From assembly GCA_964427275.1 (NCBI GenBank), contig CAYRSR010000004.1, positions 2,769 through 66,768 of the forward strand: DNA of 64,000 nucleotides, in the 5' to 3' direction. The position numbers and the translations under genes are program-made. A model generated the notes under the pieces. The model was not told the origin of the DNA. It did not search any database and was given only the letters and a program-made list of their open reading frames with translations. This stretch comes from an uncultured Candidatus Saccharibacteria bacterium (GTDB lineage Bacteria; Patescibacteriota; Minisyncoccia; UBA6257; CAYRSR01). Shown here piece after piece: positions 37,835 to 61,544 of this stretch (within the stretch, counting starts at the first letter, position 1; each line of letters begins with the position of its first letter).

Positions 37835-37884
37835 CAAAAGAACTTTAAAGTTGTAAAGGGCGATTATTGTTATTAAATTTTAAA

Positions 37885-38073
37885 ATGTACAAAGTAAATA
37901 AAGAAAAGTGCGTTGGATGTCAGTCTTGTGTTCAGGCTTGTCCTGGAGCAATTAAGATAGGAGAAGATGGTAAAGCGGAAATAATTGACCAGGAGAAGTT
38001 GGAGAAGTGTGGTGGAGAAAGTGTTTGTCCACTAGGAGCAATTGAGAAAACTGAATCTCAAGAAAATGATTAG
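37885..38073 (+). CDS. 4Fe-4S ferredoxin
   Basis: CVGCQSCVQACP plus a second ...C...CPLGAI cluster motif; ~62 aa. Confidence 0.75.
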   Translation: MYKVNKEKCVGCQSCVQACPGAIKIGEDGKAEIIDQEKLEKCGGESVCPLGAIEKTESQEND

Positions 38074-38422
38074 ATTGACTGATTTGAACTTTGAAAAGGA
38101 AATTCAAAGTACAAATAAGCCAGTTTTAGTTGATTTTTGGGCAACTTGGTGCTATCCTTGTAGTGTTCTTAGCCCAATTTTAGAGAAATTAGCTAAGGAG
38201 TATCAGGATGAATTGATATTGGCTAAAGTGAATATTGCTGAAGCTCCAATGATTTCTGAAAAGCTTGGAATTGACCAGATTCCAACTGTAATTTTGTTTA
38301 AGAATGGAAAACCGATTAGTGGGTTTATTGGAGTAAGGCCTGAGCCAGTAATAAGAGAGTGGTTAAGAAAGATGTTGAGAGAATCTAAAAATAATTATGC
38401 CGAGAGTAAAAACTCAAACTAA
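38066..38422 (+). CDS. trxA: thioredoxin
   Basis: VDFWATWCYPC active site (WCxPC), ~118 aa. Start refined to the ATG at 38066. Confidence 0.85.
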   Translation: MIRLTDLNFEKEIQSTNKPVLVDFWATWCYPCSVLSPILEKLAKEYQDELILAKVNIAEAPMISEKLGIDQIPTVILFKNGKPISGFIGVRPEPVIREWLRKMLRESKNNYAESKNSN

Positions 38423-38687
38423 AAAGAATGAGTTGAAAGAAATTATTGAATGGCTTGAGAACTATGCGAAGAAGAATGGCTTTAGATTAAATCCTAATAG
38501 AGCAATAGTAGAAAAATTAGCAAGAGGCCTTTTAATCAATCAGAAAAAATATGGAGCTAGATATTGTCCTTGTAGGAGAATTACCGGAAATTTAAAGGAA
38601 GATCGATTTAAAATTTGTCCCTGTAAATGGCATCGAGAAGAAATTAAGAAATATGGTCATTGTTTTTGTGGATTGTTTTTTAAATAG
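38397..38687 (+). CDS. ferredoxin-thioredoxin reductase catalytic subunit-like protein
   Basis: Three Cys pairs in FTR-type spacing: YCPCR...ICPCKWH...GHCFCGLF (CPC / CPC / CxC). Confidence 0.65.
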   Translation: MPRVKTQTKKNELKEIIEWLENYAKKNGFRLNPNRAIVEKLARGLLINQKKYGARYCPCRRITGNLKEDRFKICPCKWHREEIKKYGHCFCGLFFK

Positions 38688-50523: not shown

Positions 50524-50551
50524 CAGCCCGGTTAAAGCCGGGCTTTTTTAC
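50524..50551. terminator. bidirectional Rho-independent terminator between convergent genes
   Basis: agcccgg-ttaa-agccgggct followed by TTTTTT. Confidence 0.7.
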
Positions 50552-51626
50552 AGTTTGTTCTATCTAGGGACTCTGTAGCTGTAGCTGGAATAAATTTTAT
50601 TATGTTTTTAACTTCGCTTATTTTAAACTTTCCTTGGATAAACTTTTCAATTACCCAGAGATTAGTCTTGCAGTGTTTAGTAATCCTTGAAACTGAAATT
50701 GTGCTACTTTCAGAAGCTAAACTTATATATGGTAAAATCTGATCAGCTAAATATCTATCCAGTGTAGCATTAGATTCAAATTCTTCCAAAAATTGCATTG
50801 CTACCTCTTTTCCTACTTGTTCAGCTGGTTTTCCTATCTTTCCCAGATTATCTGAACCAATCACTGTATTTTCAAACCAGCCAACAATATTTATCTGACT
50901 TCCGGTACTCAGGCTGGGATAATATTCGACTTGAGTTTCAATGTTAGAAGTTATTTTTTCGATTATTGATTTTGCTGAATTTAGTTGTCTCTCGGCTACT
51001 TGATTGTGTTTTAATTTAATTGATGCTCCAGAAATTATTTGAATTTTTTTTAACTTTCCACGCTCAATTAAGTTAAGAGGAAGGATTTTAGAAACAGGAC
51101 TGATTTTAACTCTTACTTTTGCTCCTCCTTCAGGATAGAATCCCCGGTTTAAAATCTTAATGTCAATATCTTTGATGCCCAACTTAGACAGAATTTCAAG
51201 CAACACTAACCTAGTATAATCAATAGTTGGAGCAAAGAATGTATCAGTTGCTCCACCATCAAAAGTTACAATTACCGGAGTTTGCTTTTTTGATGAATTA
51301 GCAAACAGTGCCGGTAGCATTAAGGTTTGAAGAATTAAGGTAATACTTCCGGCAGTAGGGATTTTTATGGTTAGTTCCCTGGCTTTGGTCTCTCCGGGGT
51401 AAAAAAATATTTCTTCAGAATTAAGCTTATCTCCAATTAGTCTTGTATTACATAGCTTAGCTAAAGACCTTATTCCAAGGAGATGTTGAGTTTTAAGCCC
51501 AGGTTTTGGTCTATTTTTTCTAATATTTTTTATGTGACAAGGAATTTTTAAAACTGCTGAAAGTGAGCAAGCAGTTCTTAATATTTGTCCTCCCCCTTCC
51601 AAATATGAGCCATCAATCTCTATCAT
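50532..51626 (-). CDS. rtcA: RNA 3'-terminal phosphate cyclase
   Basis: MIEIDGSYLEGGGQILRTACSLSA is the RtcA N-terminal signature; 364 aa. Confidence 0.8.
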   Translation of the reverse strand: MIEIDGSYLEGGGQILRTACSLSAVLKIPCHIKNIRKNRPKPGLKTQHLLGIRSLAKLCNTRLIGDKLNSEEIFFYPGETKARELTIKIPTAGSITLILQTLMLPALFANSSKKQTPVIVTFDGGATDTFFAPTIDYTRLVLLEILSKLGIKDIDIKILNRGFYPEGGAKVRVKISPVSKILPLNLIERGKLKKIQIISGASIKLKHNQVAERQLNSAKSIIEKITSNIETQVEYYPSLSTGSQINIVGWFENTVIGSDNLGKIGKPAEQVGKEVAMQFLEEFESNATLDRYLADQILPYISLASESSTISVSRITKHCKTNLWVIEKFIQGKFKISEVKNIIKFIPATATESLDRTNCKKARL

Positions 51627-55570: not shown

Positions 55571-55609
55571 ACTAAAAATTTGTTCTTTGATAAAAAGGAG
55601 GTTGGTAGA

Positions 55610-56182
55610 ATGAATTTAAAGCAGTTAAAGAAAGAAATTAGTAAGATTAAAATTAGATGGGAGGATAAGGATAGGGTTAGAGAAAAATTACTAGTTCTGG
55701 GTCGGAAGGTAATCAGGCTTTCCGGCAAGGCAATAAAGTTTATTCATAATGGTAACTTAACTAAAGCTGGAGAGTTAATAGAAGAGGCCAAATCTTTGAA
55801 TTTAGCTGCACGCAAGCTTTCTAGAGAATATTCTGACCTGTATTATAATTATACCAAAAATGCTCAAAAGGAGCTGGTGGAAGCGGTAGCTCTAATTTCA
55901 ATTTTGACTGATAGAAATATTCCTACTCGGGATGAATTAAAAGTGGAATGTACTGCATATGCTAATGGGTTAGGAGAAGTAATTGGAGAGTTAAGGAGAT
56001 ATGTTTTAAATTGTTTAAATGAGGGACAATCTGAAAAAGCTCAACAAATTTTTGATTTGATGCAGGAAATCTTTAATATTCTGACAACATTGAATGTTTT
56101 CCCATCTAAGATTAATGGTGGTTTTCGAAGGACAATAGATGTAGCTAGAAATTTGATTGTAAAGACAAAGGAATATTTTTAA
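55610..56182 (+). CDS. translin-family-like helical protein
   Basis: All-helical ~190 aa. Regions such as EAVALISILTD...TAYANGLGEVIGELRRY resemble archaeal/bacterial translin; tentative. Confidence 0.35.
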   Translation: MNLKQLKKEISKIKIRWEDKDRVREKLLVLGRKVIRLSGKAIKFIHNGNLTKAGELIEEAKSLNLAARKLSREYSDLYYNYTKNAQKELVEAVALISILTDRNIPTRDELKVECTAYANGLGEVIGELRRYVLNCLNEGQSEKAQQIFDLMQEIFNILTTLNVFPSKINGGFRRTIDVARNLIVKTKEYF

Positions 56183-56189
56183 TAACTTA

Positions 56190-56216
56190 AGGCAGCTGAA
56201 AAGCTGCCTTTTTAAT
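56190..56216 (+). terminator. Rho-independent terminator
   Basis: aggcagct-gaaa-agctgcct followed by TTTTT. Confidence 0.7.
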
Positions 56217-56256
56217 TTTAAAAAAATAAAATTTATGCTATACTAGAATAGTGTAC

Positions 56257-58509
56257 ATGAAAAAAAGGAGAGTTAAAAAACCCTTTTCAGATTTTTGGTA
56301 CAAAAAATATTTGTCTTCTAGAGATTTTTTGATTATAGAAAATAGTTTTCAAAGAGAACAACAACAAAAGCAGGAAACCATATTTTCTCTAGGGAATGGA
56401 TTTATCTGTTGTAGGGGAACTTTAGAAGAAACTCCGGTTGGTTGTAATCCAGGAACTTATTGGTCTGGTATATATGATCAGCAAGGAGTGCAAGTTACCG
56501 AGATTGTAAATCTTCCCAATCCATTTAAATTTAAAATTAAAGTTAATGGATTAAAATTAAATGTTTCTGAAGGATATTTAAAACACCAAAGGATTTTAGA
56601 TTTAAAAAAATGCGCATTGTTTCGAAAGACTATATTTGATATAAAAAGTCAGCGATTTGATTTCCAGTCCTTAAGGTTTTTAAGTAAATCAAATCCTCAT
56701 TTAGGTGCATTTCAAATATTGTTTACTCCTTTAACTGGCGATGTAACACTTGAAGTAGAAAACTTTATTGATTCTCAAGTTGTAAATCAAAATTCCAAAG
56801 TTTGTCATTTTGAGGTATTAAAATCAATTTCCAGAAAGAACTATGAGTTGTTGCATATTAAAACTCTAGAAGATAGGTATTCGGTCTGCTATGCAGCAGC
56901 ATTAAAGATTAAAAAACAAAATCAGGAACATTTAAATTCTAACAAGCTTTTAAGGTTTAAACTTAAAAAAGGAGAAACTATTAGTTTTACTAAGTTTTTC
57001 TCGATTTATACAACCAGAGAAACTGCAGCTAAAAATCTGGAAGTTTTTGCCAAAGATGACTTAAAGGAAGCTTTAAATACTGGCTTTGAGGAATTATTTT
57101 CTCGACATATTAAATTCTGGAATAAAATCTGGAAAGAGTCGGATTTAAAAATAACTGGGCCATTAAATATCCAGAGAGCTTTAAGGTTTAATATTTATCA
57201 ACATCTGATAGCTGTAGATGAAAGAAATCCTGATATTGGCATACCAGCCAAGGGGTTGACTGGTGAAGGATACAAAGGGCATATTTTCTGGGATGCTGAA
57301 ATATTTAATTTACCATTTTTTGTATTTAATGCTCCGCAAATAGCTAAGAACTTACTGATTTATAGGTACAGTTGCCTAAAAGAAGCCAAAAAAAGAGCTA
57401 AAGATATGGGGTATCAGGGAGCTTTGTTTGGCTGGGAAACAGCTGATAGCGGAAGTGACTGCACTCCCTCCGGAATTCAGGGTGAAGAGATACTTACAGG
57501 TAAGTATGAACAGCATATTTCTGGCGATGTTGCCTTTGGTGTTTACAATTACTTTCGGGCAACTGGTGATGAGCAGTTTATGCTGGACTATGGTCTGGAA
57601 ATTATTTTTGAAACCGCTCGATTTTGGGCTTCCAGATTAACCAGAGGAAAGGACAATTTTTATCACTTAAGTCAAATAATGGGACCAGATGAATTCCATT
57701 TAATTGTGAATGATAACACTTATACCAATTACCTGGCTAAGTGGAATCTATCTATTGCCAGTAGTTTATATAGACAGTTTCTTTTTCACAATCAGTTTGA
57801 AAAGGTTGTTAAAAAAATTGGATTGACAAAAGCAGAAATTGAAGAATGGAATAAAAAAGCTGGAAATATTTTTATTAGTAAAAGACAGGACAGTTTGATT
57901 TTTGATAGCTTTAAAAATTACTCCCGGAAAAAGTATCTTCCAATTAAAAAGAGAAATGAACTGGGATTACCACTTAAGCCGGAACTGAGCTTGAAACAAC
58001 TTGGCAAAACCCAGTTAATCAAACAGCCAGATGTAGTTATGCTATTTTATCTATTTCCAGAACAGTTTGACTTTAAAACTATAAAATCCAACTTTGAATT
58101 TTATGAGCAAAGAACTGTTCATCATTCTTCTCTTTCTGCACCTATCTCTTCTTTGGTAGCTTTATATAGTAAAGATTATTCCAAAGCTAAGTATTACTTT
58201 TTATTAAGTCTTTTTTGCGATTTAAAAGATTTTTATAAAAATACTGTTTCAGGAGTTCATATGGCTTCTTGTGGAGGAGTTTGGCAGGTTATATTTCGCG
58301 GATTTTTAGGAGCAAGGTTTAAAAATGGAAGTTTGGAATTTTGTTCAAATGTTCCTAATTATTTGAAGTCGATAAAAATGAGGTTTAAGTTTAAAGGTAG
58401 AAATTTTGAAATTAAAGCGACTTCAAAAAAGCTAAAAATAAAGTCTTTAAGTAAACTACCAGTCAAAATTGAATCTAAAAAGAATTTTGCCAGAATTAGC
58501 GTTTCTTGA
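56257..58509 (+). CDS. glycoside hydrolase family 65 protein (kojibiose/maltose/trehalose-type phosphorylase)
   Basis: LGNGFICCRGTLEE N-terminal motif and a central (alpha/alpha)6 region (GHIFWDAEIF...). ~750 aa. Confidence 0.75.
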   Translation: MKKRRVKKPFSDFWYKKYLSSRDFLIIENSFQREQQQKQETIFSLGNGFICCRGTLEETPVGCNPGTYWSGIYDQQGVQVTEIVNLPNPFKFKIKVNGLKLNVSEGYLKHQRILDLKKCALFRKTIFDIKSQRFDFQSLRFLSKSNPHLGAFQILFTPLTGDVTLEVENFIDSQVVNQNSKVCHFEVLKSISRKNYELLHIKTLEDRYSVCYAAALKIKKQNQEHLNSNKLLRFKLKKGETISFTKFFSIYTTRETAAKNLEVFAKDDLKEALNTGFEELFSRHIKFWNKIWKESDLKITGPLNIQRALRFNIYQHLIAVDERNPDIGIPAKGLTGEGYKGHIFWDAEIFNLPFFVFNAPQIAKNLLIYRYSCLKEAKKRAKDMGYQGALFGWETADSGSDCTPSGIQGEEILTGKYEQHISGDVAFGVYNYFRATGDEQFMLDYGLEIIFETARFWASRLTRGKDNFYHLSQIMGPDEFHLIVNDNTYTNYLAKWNLSIASSLYRQFLFHNQFEKVVKKIGLTKAEIEEWNKKAGNIFISKRQDSLIFDSFKNYSRKKYLPIKKRNELGLPLKPELSLKQLGKTQLIKQPDVVMLFYLFPEQFDFKTIKSNFEFYEQRTVHHSSLSAPISSLVALYSKDYSKAKYYFLLSLFCDLKDFYKNTVSGVHMASCGGVWQVIFRGFLGARFKNGSLEFCSNVPNYLKSIKMRFKFKGRNFEIKATSKKLKIKSLSKLPVKIESKKNFARISVS

Positions 58510-58542
58510 CCCATTTTTAAATCAGCTTTATAATTCTAGTAT

Positions 58543-59469
58543 ATGAACATCTACGATTTAATAATTATTGGAGGAGGTCCAGCTGGAATTACTGCTGGCA
58601 TTTATGCTGCTAGGCAAAAGCTCAATACATTGTTGATTACCAAAAGTTTTGGTGGCCAGGTAAACAGAAAAGCAGTAGCCATTGAGAATTATCCTGGTTT
58701 TGAAAAAATCTCCGGGAGTGATTTGATAACAAAGTTTGAACAGCAGTTAAGAAAAACTGGAATAGAAATTAGACGAGACGCAGTGGTAAAGGTTAGTTGG
58801 CTGAAGCAAGAGTTTTTAGTAGAAACCAAGACCAAAAATCAATTTAAATCTAAAGCGGTAATTGTTGCTTCTGGTGCAGATCCCAGACCACTGGAAGTTC
58901 CTGGAGAAAAAGAATTCATTGGAAAAGGGGTAAGCTATTGTACTGCCTGTGATGCTCCTTTATATCGAGATAAAACTGTGGCAGTAATTGGTGGGGGGAA
59001 TTCTGGATTTGAAGCAGCAATTGCATTAGCTAATTGGGCTAAGCACATTTATATCCTAGAATTTCTATCTCAGGTTTCAGCTGATGAAATTAATCAAGAG
59101 TTAGTTCAAAAAACTGGAAAAGTGGATGTAATTACTAATGCCAAAGTGGTTGAAATAAAAGGTGATGAATTTGTAAATTCAATTGTTTACCAAGACCGTG
59201 AAACCGGACAATCTAATAGCCTTTCTTTGGATGGAGTATTTATTGAAATTGGTTCTCAGCCAGCTACTTCATTTGTAAAGGACCTGGTAGATTTTAACTC
59301 TAGGGATGAAATTAAAATCGATCCATTTACTAACCAGGCTAAAACTCCAGGATTGTTTGCTGCTGGAGATGTAACTGAAGTTAAATATAAACAAATTGTA
59401 ATTGCCTGCAGTGAAGGTGCAAAAGCTGCTCTTAGCGCTGATAAATATATAAAAAAGTTACTTAGTTAA
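58543..59469 (+). CDS. trxB: thioredoxin reductase-like flavoprotein lacking canonical NADPH 2'-phosphate motif
   Basis: DLIIIGGGPAGITAG FAD site, CTACDA redox CxxC and a second VIGGGNSG Rossmann. The HRRDxFRA box is replaced by YILEFLSQVSAD. Confidence 0.7.
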   Translation: MNIYDLIIIGGGPAGITAGIYAARQKLNTLLITKSFGGQVNRKAVAIENYPGFEKISGSDLITKFEQQLRKTGIEIRRDAVVKVSWLKQEFLVETKTKNQFKSKAVIVASGADPRPLEVPGEKEFIGKGVSYCTACDAPLYRDKTVAVIGGGNSGFEAAIALANWAKHIYILEFLSQVSADEINQELVQKTGKVDVITNAKVVEIKGDEFVNSIVYQDRETGQSNSLSLDGVFIEIGSQPATSFVKDLVDFNSRDEIKIDPFTNQAKTPGLFAAGDVTEVKYKQIVIACSEGAKAALSADKYIKKLLS

Positions 59470-59499
59470 AGGTCGAAAAAGTTGAATTGTCAAAATATT

Positions 59500-59766
59500 A
59501 TGAAAGTTTTAAAATTTGGAGCTAGCTGGTGTGAAGGTTGCAAGGTGATGAAACCAAGGTGGGAAGAAATTGAAAAAGAATATCCCTGGCTGGAAACTAA
59601 ATTCATTAGTATTGATGAACACCCAGAAGCAATGAAAGAATACAAAATTATGAGTCTACCAACTGCTATATTTTTGGATAAACAAAATCAGGAAATAGCC
59701 AGGTTTTCAGGAGAAGTAGAAAAAGAAGTATTGATAAAAGCAATTTTAGAAAATAAGGACAAATAA
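59500..59766 (+). CDS. thioredoxin-like protein (CxxC = WCEGC)
   Basis: LKFGASWCEGCKVM; ~88 aa; immediately downstream of the trxB-like gene. Confidence 0.6.
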   Translation: MKVLKFGASWCEGCKVMKPRWEEIEKEYPWLETKFISIDEHPEAMKEYKIMSLPTAIFLDKQNQEIARFSGEVEKEVLIKAILENKDK

Positions 59767-59778
59767 AATCAACTTCAG

Positions 59779-60468
59779 ATGAACAATTCTAAAAATGATT
59801 ATATTAGATTGTCTCCTTCTACTTTAAACCTGTTTTTAGAATGCAAAAGGTGTTTCTGGCTTCAGGTAAATAAAGGAATTCATCGACCCACAAGCCCTTT
59901 TTCATCTTTACCTGGTGGAATGGATGGGGTAATTAAGAAATATTTTGATAAATACCGATTATTAAATACTTTACCTCCTGAAATCAAAGGAAAAGTTGTT
60001 GGTAGCTTGATGACTGAACTAGAATTACTTAATCAGTGGAGAAACTGGTATACTGGACTAAAGTATATTGATTCAACTAGAAAAGGAATTCTAATTGGAG
60101 CTTTAGATGATTGTCTCAAAGATGGCAAATACTATATTCCAGTTGATTATAAAACCAGAGGTTACCCGCCTTCTCAAAATAGTTCAGAAGAATATTATCA
60201 ACATCAATTAAATTGTTATACTTTCTTATTGAAGCAAAATGGTTATCCGGTAAAGAATTTTGCTTATCTAATTTATTATTATCCCAGGCAAGTTAAAGAG
60301 AATGGAATAGTTGAATTTAATGTGGAGCCAATAAGAATCAAGACCTACCCCGAGCAGGCTAAAAAAGTTTTTGAACAAGCTCTTGATTTATTGAAAGGTG
60401 ACTTGCCAGAAAAACACTCCAAATGCTCTTATTGCAATTGGGCTGGAGATGTTTCTGGATTTGAATAA
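59779..60468 (+). CDS. PD-(D/E)xK nuclease-like protein (Cas4/RecB-like) with 2+2 Cys
   Basis: N-terminal CKRC and C-terminal CSYC; central ILIGALDD...IPVDYKT (D...D-x-K core). Confidence 0.4.
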   Translation: MNNSKNDYIRLSPSTLNLFLECKRCFWLQVNKGIHRPTSPFSSLPGGMDGVIKKYFDKYRLLNTLPPEIKGKVVGSLMTELELLNQWRNWYTGLKYIDSTRKGILIGALDDCLKDGKYYIPVDYKTRGYPPSQNSSEEYYQHQLNCYTFLLKQNGYPVKNFAYLIYYYPRQVKENGIVEFNVEPIRIKTYPEQAKKVFEQALDLLKGDLPEKHSKCSYCNWAGDVSGFE

Positions 60469-60493
60469 AAGGTCGGCTAAAATACAATAATTA

Positions 60494-60934
60494 ATGAAAC
60501 TTACCAGTCCAGCATTTAAAAATAACCAAAATATTCCTGAAAAGTATACCTGCGATGGAGAAAATTTAAGCCCGCCTTTGTTTATATCTGATATTCCGGT
60601 AGGTACTGAAAGCCTGGTTTTAATTGTAGATGATCCCGATGCTCCATCAGGATGCTTTGTTCATTGGACGTTATGGAATATTTCACCCCAAACTACAGAA
60701 ATTCCAGAAGGCAAGATACCTGAGAATGCGATTGAGGGAATAACTGATTTTGGAAAACCTGGTTATGGTGGTCCTTGTCCTCCTTCTGGGATCCATCGAT
60801 ATTTTTTTAAGATTTATGCTTTAGATACCAGACTAGAGCTTGATTCCTCAGCAACTAAAGAGGATATTGAAGAAGTAATGGAAGGACATATTCTGGAGAA
60901 AGCCGAGTTAATTGGTTTATACCAGCGTAAGTAG
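60494..60934 (+). CDS. YbhB/YbcL-family PEBP (Raf kinase inhibitor-like) protein
   Basis: LIVDDPDAP...HWTLWNI...GYGGPCPPSGIHRYFFKIYALD PEBP signature. Confidence 0.8.
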   Translation: MKLTSPAFKNNQNIPEKYTCDGENLSPPLFISDIPVGTESLVLIVDDPDAPSGCFVHWTLWNISPQTTEIPEGKIPENAIEGITDFGKPGYGGPCPPSGIHRYFFKIYALDTRLELDSSATKEDIEEVMEGHILEKAELIGLYQRK

Positions 60935-60964
60935 ATTAAATATTTTTTTTGTGGTAAAATTAAA

Positions 60965-61300
60965 TTGATGATTAATATTGAAATTAAAGTTCGGCAATTA
61001 TCTAAAACTAATACCACTACAACTTTTGAGGTAAATATCATTACTGGAGAAACTCAAACTAAACACCTGGTTTACTTAGATAATGCTGATTATCAGGAGT
61101 TAACTGCTGGTAAGATAACTCCCGAGGAATTGGTTAGAAAAACAATGGAATTCTTACTTCAAAAGAAACCTAAAGAGTCAATTTTAAGAGAGCTTGATAT
61201 TGGTCAGATATCTGGCTACCTTCCTGAGTATCCAGAGCAAGTTAAAGAGTGGCTGAAAGATTTACCTGCGACCGAAGATGATTTGTCTTCAACCAGATAG
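60965..61300 (+). CDS. hypothetical protein (111 aa)
   Basis: ORF with no recognisable motif. Confidence 0.3.
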   Translation: MMINIEIKVRQLSKTNTTTTFEVNIITGETQTKHLVYLDNADYQELTAGKITPEELVRKTMEFLLQKKPKESILRELDIGQISGYLPEYPEQVKEWLKDLPATEDDLSSTR

Positions 61301-61331
61301 TTCGGAAAGGTCGGAATAATTTATCTGCTAA

Positions 61332-61544
61332 ATGGATCGAGAAGAAAAAATTAAACTGGCTATTTTTTTAACCGGGCTTCTAGCTGCTGGCAGTTTAGCT
61401 TCTCAAAAAGGAGTTAAACCAGTTGGACTTTCTGATTATGCCTGGGGGTACTTGTTTAAGAATTGCTACCAGGGAGTAAATGAAATGATTAAAATGGCTG
61501 ATGAAATGGACTCTAGCTCGAAACCTAAATCTAAAAAAACTTAA
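61332..61544 (+). CDS. hypothetical small protein with N-terminal hydrophobic segment (70 aa)
   Basis: ORF preceded by the AAAGGTCGGAA motif. Confidence 0.3.
   Translation: MDREEKIKLAIFLTGLLAAGSLASQKGVKPVGLSDYAWGYLFKNCYQGVNEMIKMADEMDSSSKPKSKKT

Follow-up and report, generated by a model that had tools for sequence, protein, structure and literature searches.

The thioredoxin reductase and thioredoxin gene pair

The window analysed here is the whole 64,000-nucleotide stretch of contig CAYRSR010000004.1 (GenBank assembly GCA_964427275.1, an uncultured Candidatus Saccharibacteria bacterium), with a G+C content of ~32% over its whole length. Its forward strand carries a candidate two-component thioredoxin system composed of a low-molecular-weight (low-Mr) thioredoxin reductase (TrxR) homolog of 308 amino acids (58543-59469) and a short thioredoxin (Trx) of 88 amino acids (59500-59766). 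The TrxR is recognised by its Pfam, NCBIfam, and PDB matches together with its AlphaFold2 (AF2) model, and the Trx by the Pfam Thioredoxin profile, the lengths of its homologs, and its own AF2 model. The pair is flanked by a GH65 phosphorylase gene upstream of TrxR and a PD-(D/E)XK nuclease gene downstream of Trx. Both genes are considered real because the TrxR recurs as an identical protein, among the same neighbours, on contigs of independent samples and because homologs number in the thousands, with >8000 database clusters matching TrxR at E<=1e-20. The close homologs of both proteins bear Patescibacteria, Parcubacteria, or Nealsonbacteria names, from which the source is taken to be a tiny-genome bacterium of the Candidate Phyla Radiation.

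The Trx open reading frame (ORF) as listed runs from 59482 to 59766 on the forward strand, and its TTG start at 59482 would give a protein of 94 amino acids. Because nearly all of the ~120 listed homologs are 88 amino acids long and begin with MKVLKF, as does the identical protein P0121, the true start is most probably the ATG at 59500, 30 nt past the TrxR stop codon, and the TTG is probably wrong. The forward-strand interval from the GH65 stop codon to the TrxR ATG holds a promoter-like site, TTGACC-17-TATAAT (58506-58534), which matches 11 of 12 consensus positions and is the top site within 56000-61500; the region has as many sigma-70-like sites in all as shuffling leads one to expect, so the site counts as a consensus match only. 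No obvious Shine-Dalgarno sequence is seen from the site to the ATG (58506-58542), and because the site ends 8 nt ahead of the ATG, the arrangement suggests a TrxR transcript that is leaderless, near-leaderless, or provided with a very short leader.

Family, fold, and motifs of the TrxR homolog

TrxR matches the Pfam profile Pyr_redox_2 with E=2.7e-47 and the NCBIfam model TRX_reduct (TIGR01292) with 323.1 bits over the full profile (positions 1-300 of 300); its score against the NCBIfam AhpF model, over the C-terminal 300 positions, is equally good. Its PDB sequence matches at 1e-66 to 1e-62 are archaeal TrxRs and the C-terminal half of AhpF. The E. coli AhpF entries 4ykf and 4ykg, which are NAD+/NADH complexes, are also among the PDB matches. 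The AF2 model (mean pLDDT, the predicted local confidence score, 82.6) has the two-domain TrxR/AhpF fold, and its top Foldseek matches are S. solfataricus TrxB3, Thermosipho TrxR, and E. coli AhpF, with E ~1e-36 and TM-scores of 0.73-0.82 against the TrxR and AhpF structures.

For the motif analysis, E. coli trxB and ahpF from NC_000913 were aligned (MAFFT) with the window TrxR and 120 homologs, and conservation was also followed across 80 loci of GTDB species-representative Patescibacteria (L005-L084) that hold the closest TrxR homologs. The binding motif for flavin adenine dinucleotide (FAD), GxGxxG, is G10-G-G-P-A-G15 (58570-58587, forward strand) and the second FAD motif, GxFAAGD, is G270-L-F-A-A-G-D276 (59350-59370, forward strand), both invariant in the homolog alignment. 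The redox-active disulfide C133-T-A-C136, followed by the acid/base residue D137 (58939-58953, forward strand), aligns to CATCD of E. coli TrxB; the two cysteines and the aspartate are invariant at 80 of 80 species loci, and the dipeptide between the cysteines varies. The pyrophosphate-binding motif G150-G-G-N-S-G-F-E157 (58990-59013, forward strand) occupies the turn between strand 145-149 and helix 152-162 of the AF2 model and fits the published GGGxxAxE, with G for A as in AhpF (GGGNSGVE); its GGG is effectively invariant in both the 120 close homologs and the 80 species loci. By its FAD motifs, CxxCD, pyrophosphate motif, and two-domain fold, the ORF at 58543-59469 is a low-Mr TrxR homolog, and the FAD site, the CTAC, and the GGGNSG Rossmann motif described for the flavoprotein in an earlier, sequence-only reading of this DNA are borne out by the sequence and by the TrxB alignment. 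A GKG Trx-contact motif is likewise present and conserved in the homolog alignment, and this motif and the adjacent Trx gene are the two features that suggest thioredoxin as the substrate of the enzyme.

TrxR-like ferredoxin-NADP reductases are not known to have a CxxC such as that of the window protein. This identity was rejected for it on the weakness of the matches to such enzymes (PDB 3lzw, 2zbw, and others; E 1e-26 to 1e-14).

The dinucleotide site

The segment Y170-I-L-E-F-L-S-Q-V-S-A-D181 (59050-59085, forward strand) stands in place of the (V/I)HRRDxFRA box that recognises the 2'-phosphate of NADPH, as seen in the alignment with TrxB and AhpF, where L172-E-F-L-S-Q-V-S-A-D181 lies opposite I174-H-R-R-D-G-F-R-A-E183 of E. 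coli TrxB. The box VxxxHRRDxxRA is the mark of the NADPH subgroup, and the aligned segment, IYILEFLSQVSA, has none of its arginines. The absence of HRRDxFRA, as claimed from the sequence alone, thus holds, and so does the alignment with E. coli TrxB that was proposed as its check: residues 174-181 hold no basic residue, and all three 2'-phosphate arginines are absent, with none shifted. The protein is not filed as a canonical NADPH-TrxR for this reason.

Within this segment, E173 shares a column with H175 of E. coli TrxB and with the Glu of the AhpF sequence LLEF. It is found without exception in the 120 close homologs and at the 80 species loci, down to ~47% identity, while the flanking positions 174-179 vary freely, a pattern from which E173 and the GGG appear to be under purifying selection. 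The second Rossmann unit of the AF2 model consists of strand 145-149, helix 152-162, and strand 168-172, and because the last of these ends directly before E173, this residue is placed at the C-terminal end of strand β2. In dinucleotide-binding folds, an acidic residue at the β2 end is known to bind the ribose 2'/3'-hydroxyls of NAD(H) and to disfavour the 2'-phosphate of NADP(H), as captured in Wierenga's fingerprint and in coenzyme swaps of glutathione reductase and other enzymes. An acidic residue at this position, in the column of TrxB His175, is an NAD-type signature, and E173 supplies it in the model.

AhpF of E. coli and of Salmonella has LLEFAPEMKAD in this segment, following GGGNSGVEAAI. 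A 75-amino-acid query over the dinucleotide site of TrxR retrieved three AhpF sequences first (E ~1e-14), with the next match ~5 orders weaker, and the identity over residues 145-185 is 56% to E. coli AhpF vs 37% to TrxB, compared with 40% and 33%, respectively, over the whole length. The TrxR of Thermoplasma acidophilum (3cty) aligns as GGGNSG...TIIEYMPKYMCE and also has a Glu in the E173 column. Both proteins have a recorded cofactor preference: NADH is the entry for E. coli AhpF in Table 1 of PMC4960239, and the account in PMC6262447, citing Susanti 2017, describes T. acidophilum TrxR as lacking HRRxxxR and active with NADH, not NADPH. The retained pyrophosphate motif GGGNSGFE is counted on the same side, as this motif is highly conserved in both the NADPH (TR1) and NADH (TR3) types of TrxR and degenerate in the NAD(P)H-independent type, TRi (PMC5627308).

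From the acidic-residue rule for Rossmann folds and from the two characterised relatives, AhpF and T. acidophilum TrxR, the enzyme is predicted to be specific for NADH. We consider it probable that the gene pair is a complete two-component thioredoxin system whose flavoenzyme uses NADH, not NADPH or ferredoxin. An enzyme that uses NADPH, or NADH and NADPH alike, by recognising the 2'-phosphate without the HRR arginines, by means of other residues, would agree with the fully intact nucleotide domain, with the Lys or Arg at position 177 or 179 of some homologs, and with the nearest solved structure by sequence, S. solfataricus TrxB3, which was crystallised with NADP and has an HRRD box. Such an enzyme is improbable here, however, since E173 in the His column would clash electrostatically with a 2'-phosphate, residues 174-181 offer no positive charge, and the segment matches the NADH-using AhpF and T. 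acidophilum TrxR, not the NADPH enzymes. The coenzyme F420-dependent TrxR of the M. jannaschii type was set aside on the grounds that the host is a bacterium and the site AhpF-like, with no hint of F420 metabolism in the window, though without a formal test.

Of the 150 nearest cluster representatives at 50% identity, 48 have Glu in the column of TrxB His175, 32 have His-Arg, and 68 have something else, and Glu is found in 13 of the top 15. Because only 32 of the 150 carry HR, a missing HRR is common in this sequence neighbourhood and by itself not diagnostic of any one donor. The 68 relatives without Glu or His-Arg (38-61% identity; set P0128-P0277) show contexts that include INI, ISN, LTK, VSR, and LIR; most of them keep GGG, and their electron donors may be diverse.

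Ferredoxin as an alternative donor

Flavin thioredoxin reductases that depend on ferredoxin (FFTRs), such as those of C. acetobutylicum (6gna/6gnc) and G. violaceus (5j60), are TrxR-derived flavoenzymes without the HRR box, found in anaerobes. If the window enzyme were of this type, reduced ferredoxin would feed its FAD one electron at a time, and its "NAD(P)H domain" would bind no nucleotide. For FFTR, an FAD midpoint potential of roughly -448 mV has been reported. The HRRxxxR box is absent in the window TrxR as it is in FFTR and TRi, the host belongs to a fermentative Patescibacteria lineage with a ferredoxin encoded in the window, and genes of pyruvate:ferredoxin oxidoreductase (POR) occur near Trx or near the TrxR-Trx pair on related contigs. 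Moreover, the 68 of 150 cluster representatives without Glu or HR suggest that donor switching is common in this sequence space.

The motifs of the protein nevertheless point elsewhere. According to PMC10880999, neither of the NAD(P)H motifs, GxGxxA/G and HRRxxxR, is present in FFTRs, and in D. vulgaris TRi these are replaced by GEGxxAxN and TQGK (PMC5627308), whereas the window TrxR has lost HRRxxxR and kept GGGNSG, its GGGNSGFE being intact and conserved although FFTR and TRi are defined by the loss or degeneration of this motif. The invariant Glu at the β2 end would have no obvious role if no nucleotide were bound. In terms of bit scores and published motif definitions, which make up this comparison in place of a residue-level alignment, the FFTRs are the weaker match, with 110-112 bits for 6gna/6gnc and 142 for 5j60 against 223-228 for AhpF and the archaeal TrxRs (AhpF 223, S. 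solfataricus TrxB3 228; these are scores only, not a tree). In Foldseek, too, the model falls with AhpF and the TrxRs that are NAD(P)H-linked. FFTRs are either shorter (288-294 amino acids) or Trp-tailed, and neither is true of the window TrxR, which ends in ADKYIKKLLS at the end of helix 284-307 and has neither the C-terminal tail of cyanobacterial FFTRs nor the Trp in it that stacks on FAD. When the short, motif-degenerate relative P0237 was used as a PDB query, M. mazei TrxR came first, not 6gna.

A further point against an FFTR is the separate ferredoxin-linked Fe-S system already encoded in the window by three overlapping forward-strand ORFs at 37867-38687. The first of them is a 4Fe-4S ferredoxin of 62-68 amino acids (37867/37885-38073), followed by a thioredoxin with WCYPC (38042-38422; Pfam E=5.9e-28), whose true start is probably internal, and a homolog of the ferredoxin:thioredoxin reductase catalytic chain (FTRc) of 96 amino acids (38397-38687; PF02943 E=1.4e-23) with the pattern CPC...CPC...CFC. 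The trio is also given by independent gene calls on other contigs, and by its gene content it is a genuine Fe-S ferredoxin-linked Trx system. Because this Fe-S route from ferredoxin to Trx is present, a second, flavin-based ferredoxin route is less necessary, though possible. The cluster is flanked by a tRNA-Tyr gene and two tRNA-Thr genes.

On this evidence, an FFTR is an improbable identity for the window TrxR. The sequence-only reading had taken the changes in the box as characteristic of ferredoxin-dependent flavin thioredoxin reductases and of other non-NADPH TrxR-like enzymes; the first half of that claim is not upheld, given the kept pyrophosphate motif, Glu173, and the weak FFTR scores, and the second half survives, as it covers the NADH type.

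The short thioredoxin

The thioredoxin-like protein that had been noted immediately downstream of TrxR is confirmed by the ORF at 59482-59766, which matches Pfam Thioredoxin with E=3.5e-14. Its active site is W10-C11-E-G-C14 (59527-59541) and its cis-proline is P54. The AF2 model of the 88-amino-acid protein (pLDDT 97.4) has the topology β-α-β-α-β-β-α, in which C11 and C14 stand at the start of helix 1 (12-27) and P54 lies ahead of the β3 strand (55-59), and these three residues are invariant in the short-Trx homologs. Foldseek gave TM-scores of 0.82-0.89 for the model against classical thioredoxins, with the N-terminal β-α unit missing. The protein reached 53.7 bits with the TIGR01068 model, below the cutoff of 96.8 bits, and it departs from the canonical architecture, a WCGPC site in ~105 amino acids, in both its WCEGC and its length. 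It is, therefore, an atypical, truncated classical Trx, neither a TrxA equivalog nor a redoxin of the glutaredoxin (Grx) or NrdH type.

The short-Trx family comprises at least 1178 clusters by profile search, almost all from Parcubacteria-like sources. Among the best 120 homologs, the dipeptide of the CxxC is PG in 28, SG in 14, AD and PD in 11 each, AG and NG in 8 each, PE and ED in 5 each, and EG in 3, in addition to 15 rarer forms, and the canonical GP is found in none of them. The family signature is W-C-x-[G/D/E]-C, with WCEGC as one variant. The motif called unusual in the sequence-only reading is, therefore, present, yet it is no signature of its own, and a special meaning of WCEGC was rejected for a dipeptide that is hypervariable, with >20 variants in the family.

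Gene neighbourhood in related genomes

Two other lineages (L086/L087 and L089/L090) have the Trx gene right after a TrxR homolog, at a distance of 4-5 nt. A search of the 80 GTDB loci with phmmer and a family hidden Markov model (HMM) recovered an 88-amino-acid Trx within ±3 kb of the TrxR homolog at none of them. A conserved TrxR-Trx operon was rejected on this count, the pairing being lineage-restricted; it is a recurrent, minority arrangement. At two further loci, L085 and L092, the Trx is unlinked to TrxR or POR genes.

Other contexts of the Trx involve POR. On L091 (2154-3267), an 88-amino-acid Trx lies 20 nt downstream of POR genes, and on L086 (1-377), a POR gene is located ~3 kb upstream of the TrxR-Trx pair. 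In Desulfovibrio, pyruvate:ferredoxin oxidoreductase, also abbreviated PFOR, is known to be acted on by Trx (PMC5627308), and because of this precedent it may also be a physiological target of the Trx here. The gene that follows Trx on L086 (4279-4767) and L089 (3279-3785) encodes 162-168 amino acids without a Pfam match and with a weak short-Trx HMM match (E 2e-5 to 4e-3); perhaps the operon holds one more divergent protein of the Trx fold, at the place where the window has the PD-(D/E)XK nuclease.

The neighbours of the TrxR homolog at the 80 loci are of a different kind. Enolase is found next to it on the downstream side, at +1 in 47 loci and at +2 in 11, and other conserved neighbours are phosphoglycerate mutase, of the His_Phos_1 or PhosphMutase type, and an NTP-transferase that is often upstream. 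NAD(P)H-hydrate dehydratase is encoded immediately upstream in 18/80 loci. The majority context is thus lower glycolysis and nicotinamide-cofactor repair, which fits a nicotinamide-linked enzyme and proves nothing.

A proposed NADH-linked thioredoxin system

In the proposed mechanism, NADH would bind to the second Rossmann domain of TrxR, with its pyrophosphate held by G150GGNSGFE157 and its adenosine-ribose 2'/3'-hydroxyls hydrogen-bonded by E173, which would repel a 2'-phosphate. A hydride would pass from NADH to FAD, and after the domain rotation usual for low-Mr TrxRs, the reduced FAD would reduce the C133-C136 disulfide, with D137 as acid/base. The resulting dithiol would reduce the C11-C14 disulfide of the Trx encoded 30 nt downstream, a partner suggested by the adjacency of the two genes, and the Trx would then act on disulfides of cellular target proteins.

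Several points weigh against this proposal. A search of the literature yielded no enzymology of this TrxR or of any Patescibacteria TrxR homolog. The acidic-residue rule has strong predictive value without being absolute, and the NADH activity of T. acidophilum TrxR has a contrary history, as the enzyme was first reported inactive with both NADH and NADPH, according to the same account in PMC6262447. Because many homologs, the window TrxR not among them, carry Lys or Arg at 177 or 179, dual specificity may occur in the wider TrxR family. A ferredoxin donor is physiologically available because ferredoxin and POR genes occur in the organism group. TrxR itself narrowly misses the TIGR01292 equivalog cutoff of 343.45 bits, a near miss that fits the NCBI practice of calling its homologs merely "FAD-dependent oxidoreductase". 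Finally, a partnership read from adjacency has to be set beside the 80/80 species-representative loci that lack it.

E. coli TrxB (1tde, 1f6m) shares with the window TrxR the FAD motifs, CxxCD, GGGxxxxE, the GKG/GRG contact motif, and the two domains, and it differs by an identity of only 33% and by HRRDGFRA in the place of EFLSQVSA. The FF Trx-contact pair of TrxB is replaced by P-L-Y in the window TrxR, as it is in AhpF (P-L-F). The C-terminal half of AhpF (1fl2, 1hyu, 4o5q), whose donor is NADH, is alike in fold, in the CxxCD disulfide, and in the box GGGNSGxEAAI...LEF.....AD. AhpF, however, has an N-terminal tandem Trx-fold domain of ~200 amino acids with its own CxxC, and the 308-amino-acid TrxR aligns to AhpF residues 212-515 only. 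The protein is not an AhpF proper: the upstream gene is the GH65 phosphorylase, no AhpC was found in the window, and the proposed acceptor is a free-standing Trx. T. acidophilum TrxR is, like the window protein, a stand-alone low-Mr TrxR (E=1.1e-55) that keeps GGGNSG and has the Glu column (TIIEY vs YILEF). It differs in being archaeal, in its box IIEYMPKYMCE, with MPKYMCE vs LSQVSAD, and in its contradictory cofactor history.

NADH-preferring TrxRs that work with a small redoxin are known from T. maritima (TR with a Grx-like protein) and D. vulgaris (TR3/Trx3) (PMC5627308), and C. pasteurianum has the NADH-linked TrxR-like protein Cp34 with the small redoxin Cp9 (PMC3720550). In these anaerobes, which were compared by description, an NADH-preferring TrxR homolog stands beside its own atypical redoxin, and the logic of NADPH-free thiol reduction is common to T. 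maritima, TR3/Trx3, Cp34/Cp9/Cp20, and the proposed system of the window. D. vulgaris TR3 has CxQ for the G[R/K]G Trx-contact motif, where the window TrxR has GKG. Cp9, a Grx-like redoxin with CP[YW]C, precedes a peroxiredoxin (Prx) in the order Cp34/Cp9/Cp20, whereas the redoxin of the window is of the Trx type with WCEGC and has no Prx next to it. By analogy, the proposed system is most likely of the same kind as T. acidophilum TrxR, T. maritima TR, D. vulgaris TR3/Trx3, and C. pasteurianum Cp34/Cp9.

These likenesses raise the matter of what the reduced Trx serves. A split AhpF- or Cp34/Cp9-like module for peroxide defence, in which NADH would mainly recycle a Prx instead of driving a general Trx system, would refine the picture on the acceptor side and does not conflict with the NADH mechanism. 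The nucleotide site has its highest specific similarity to AhpF, and several homologs are annotated by the Joint Genome Institute as "alkyl hydroperoxide reductase subunit F". In addition, the C. pasteurianum operon encodes a Prx and a small redoxin together with a TrxR-like protein that is NADH-dependent (PMC3720550), and Parcubacteria genomes are reported to have a thioredoxin-dependent peroxiredoxin (PMC5220378). On the other hand, no AhpC-like peroxiredoxin was found by phmmer with E. coli AhpC against the six-frame translation of the 64-kb window, the gene after Trx encodes the PD-(D/E)XK nuclease and not a Prx, the N-terminal domain of AhpF is absent from TrxR, the redoxin is a truncated classical thioredoxin rather than a redoxin of the Grx-like Cp9 type (CP[YW]C), and the conserved neighbours over the 80 related loci are enolase and phosphoglycerate mutase, not Prx. 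A dedicated peroxide-defence role is unlikely on balance, and a general NADH-linked thioredoxin system is preferred.

Significance for Patescibacteria

The NADH-type cofactor pocket looks like a known, uncommon variant of an ordinary housekeeping system, and at this one locus the outcome amounts to an informed re-annotation rather than to a system of a new kind. Since no paper was found that addresses the cofactor of TrxRs from the Candidate Phyla Radiation (CPR), the family-wide Glu signature in these proteins is a modest new generalisation. Annotation pipelines label such proteins "thioredoxin-disulfide reductase", "AhpF", or "FAD-dependent oxidoreductase", and CPR reconstructions then silently assume NADPH. 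If the Glu-type site does denote NADH, Trx-dependent functions in ultra-small fermenters, including peroxide defence, ribonucleotide reduction, and protein repair, would draw on glycolytic NADH, which would change the modelling of redox balance and oxygen tolerance in CPR organisms. The locus also serves as a warning that "no HRR box" should not be read as "ferredoxin-dependent", and the 150 cluster representatives suggest a donor specificity in the TrxR superfamily far more varied than the dichotomy between thioredoxin reductases that depend on NADPH (NTRs) and FFTRs.

A broader proposal, which we put forward tentatively and hold to be possible rather than probable, is that Patescibacteria, or at least the sampled Parcubacteria-type lineages, run their whole thiol-disulfide economy without NADPH by means of two donor-specific systems. 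The first may be a flavin TrxR that is NADH-specific and universally of the Glu type, with its gene often next to those of the lower-glycolysis enzymes enolase and phosphoglycerate mutase, and the second may be the Fe-S ferredoxin:thioredoxin reductase of the FTRc type that is present in the window. In this genome, each may have an atypical Trx of its own, the 88-amino-acid WCx[G/D/E]C protein for the flavin TrxR and the WCYPC protein for FTRc. If true, the thiol redox state would depend directly on NADH and on reduced ferredoxin, the two pools of reductant that a fermenter has.

Other features of the window

The PD-(D/E)XK nuclease, also described as Cas4-like (59779-60468, forward strand), starts 12 nt past the Trx stop codon and matches PF12705 with E=7.9e-15 and, weakly, the cas4 model TIGR00372. 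It has one CxxC near the N-terminus (CKRC) and another near the C-terminus (CSYC), a cysteine pattern that we take to resemble the Fe-S cluster site of Cas4/AddB-type nucleases. The Translin family is known mainly from eukaryotes and archaea. A member of 200 amino acids (PF01997, E=1.8e-9) is encoded at 55580-56182 on the forward strand, near the RNA 3'-terminal phosphate cyclase RtcA, which occupies 50532-51626 on the reverse strand.

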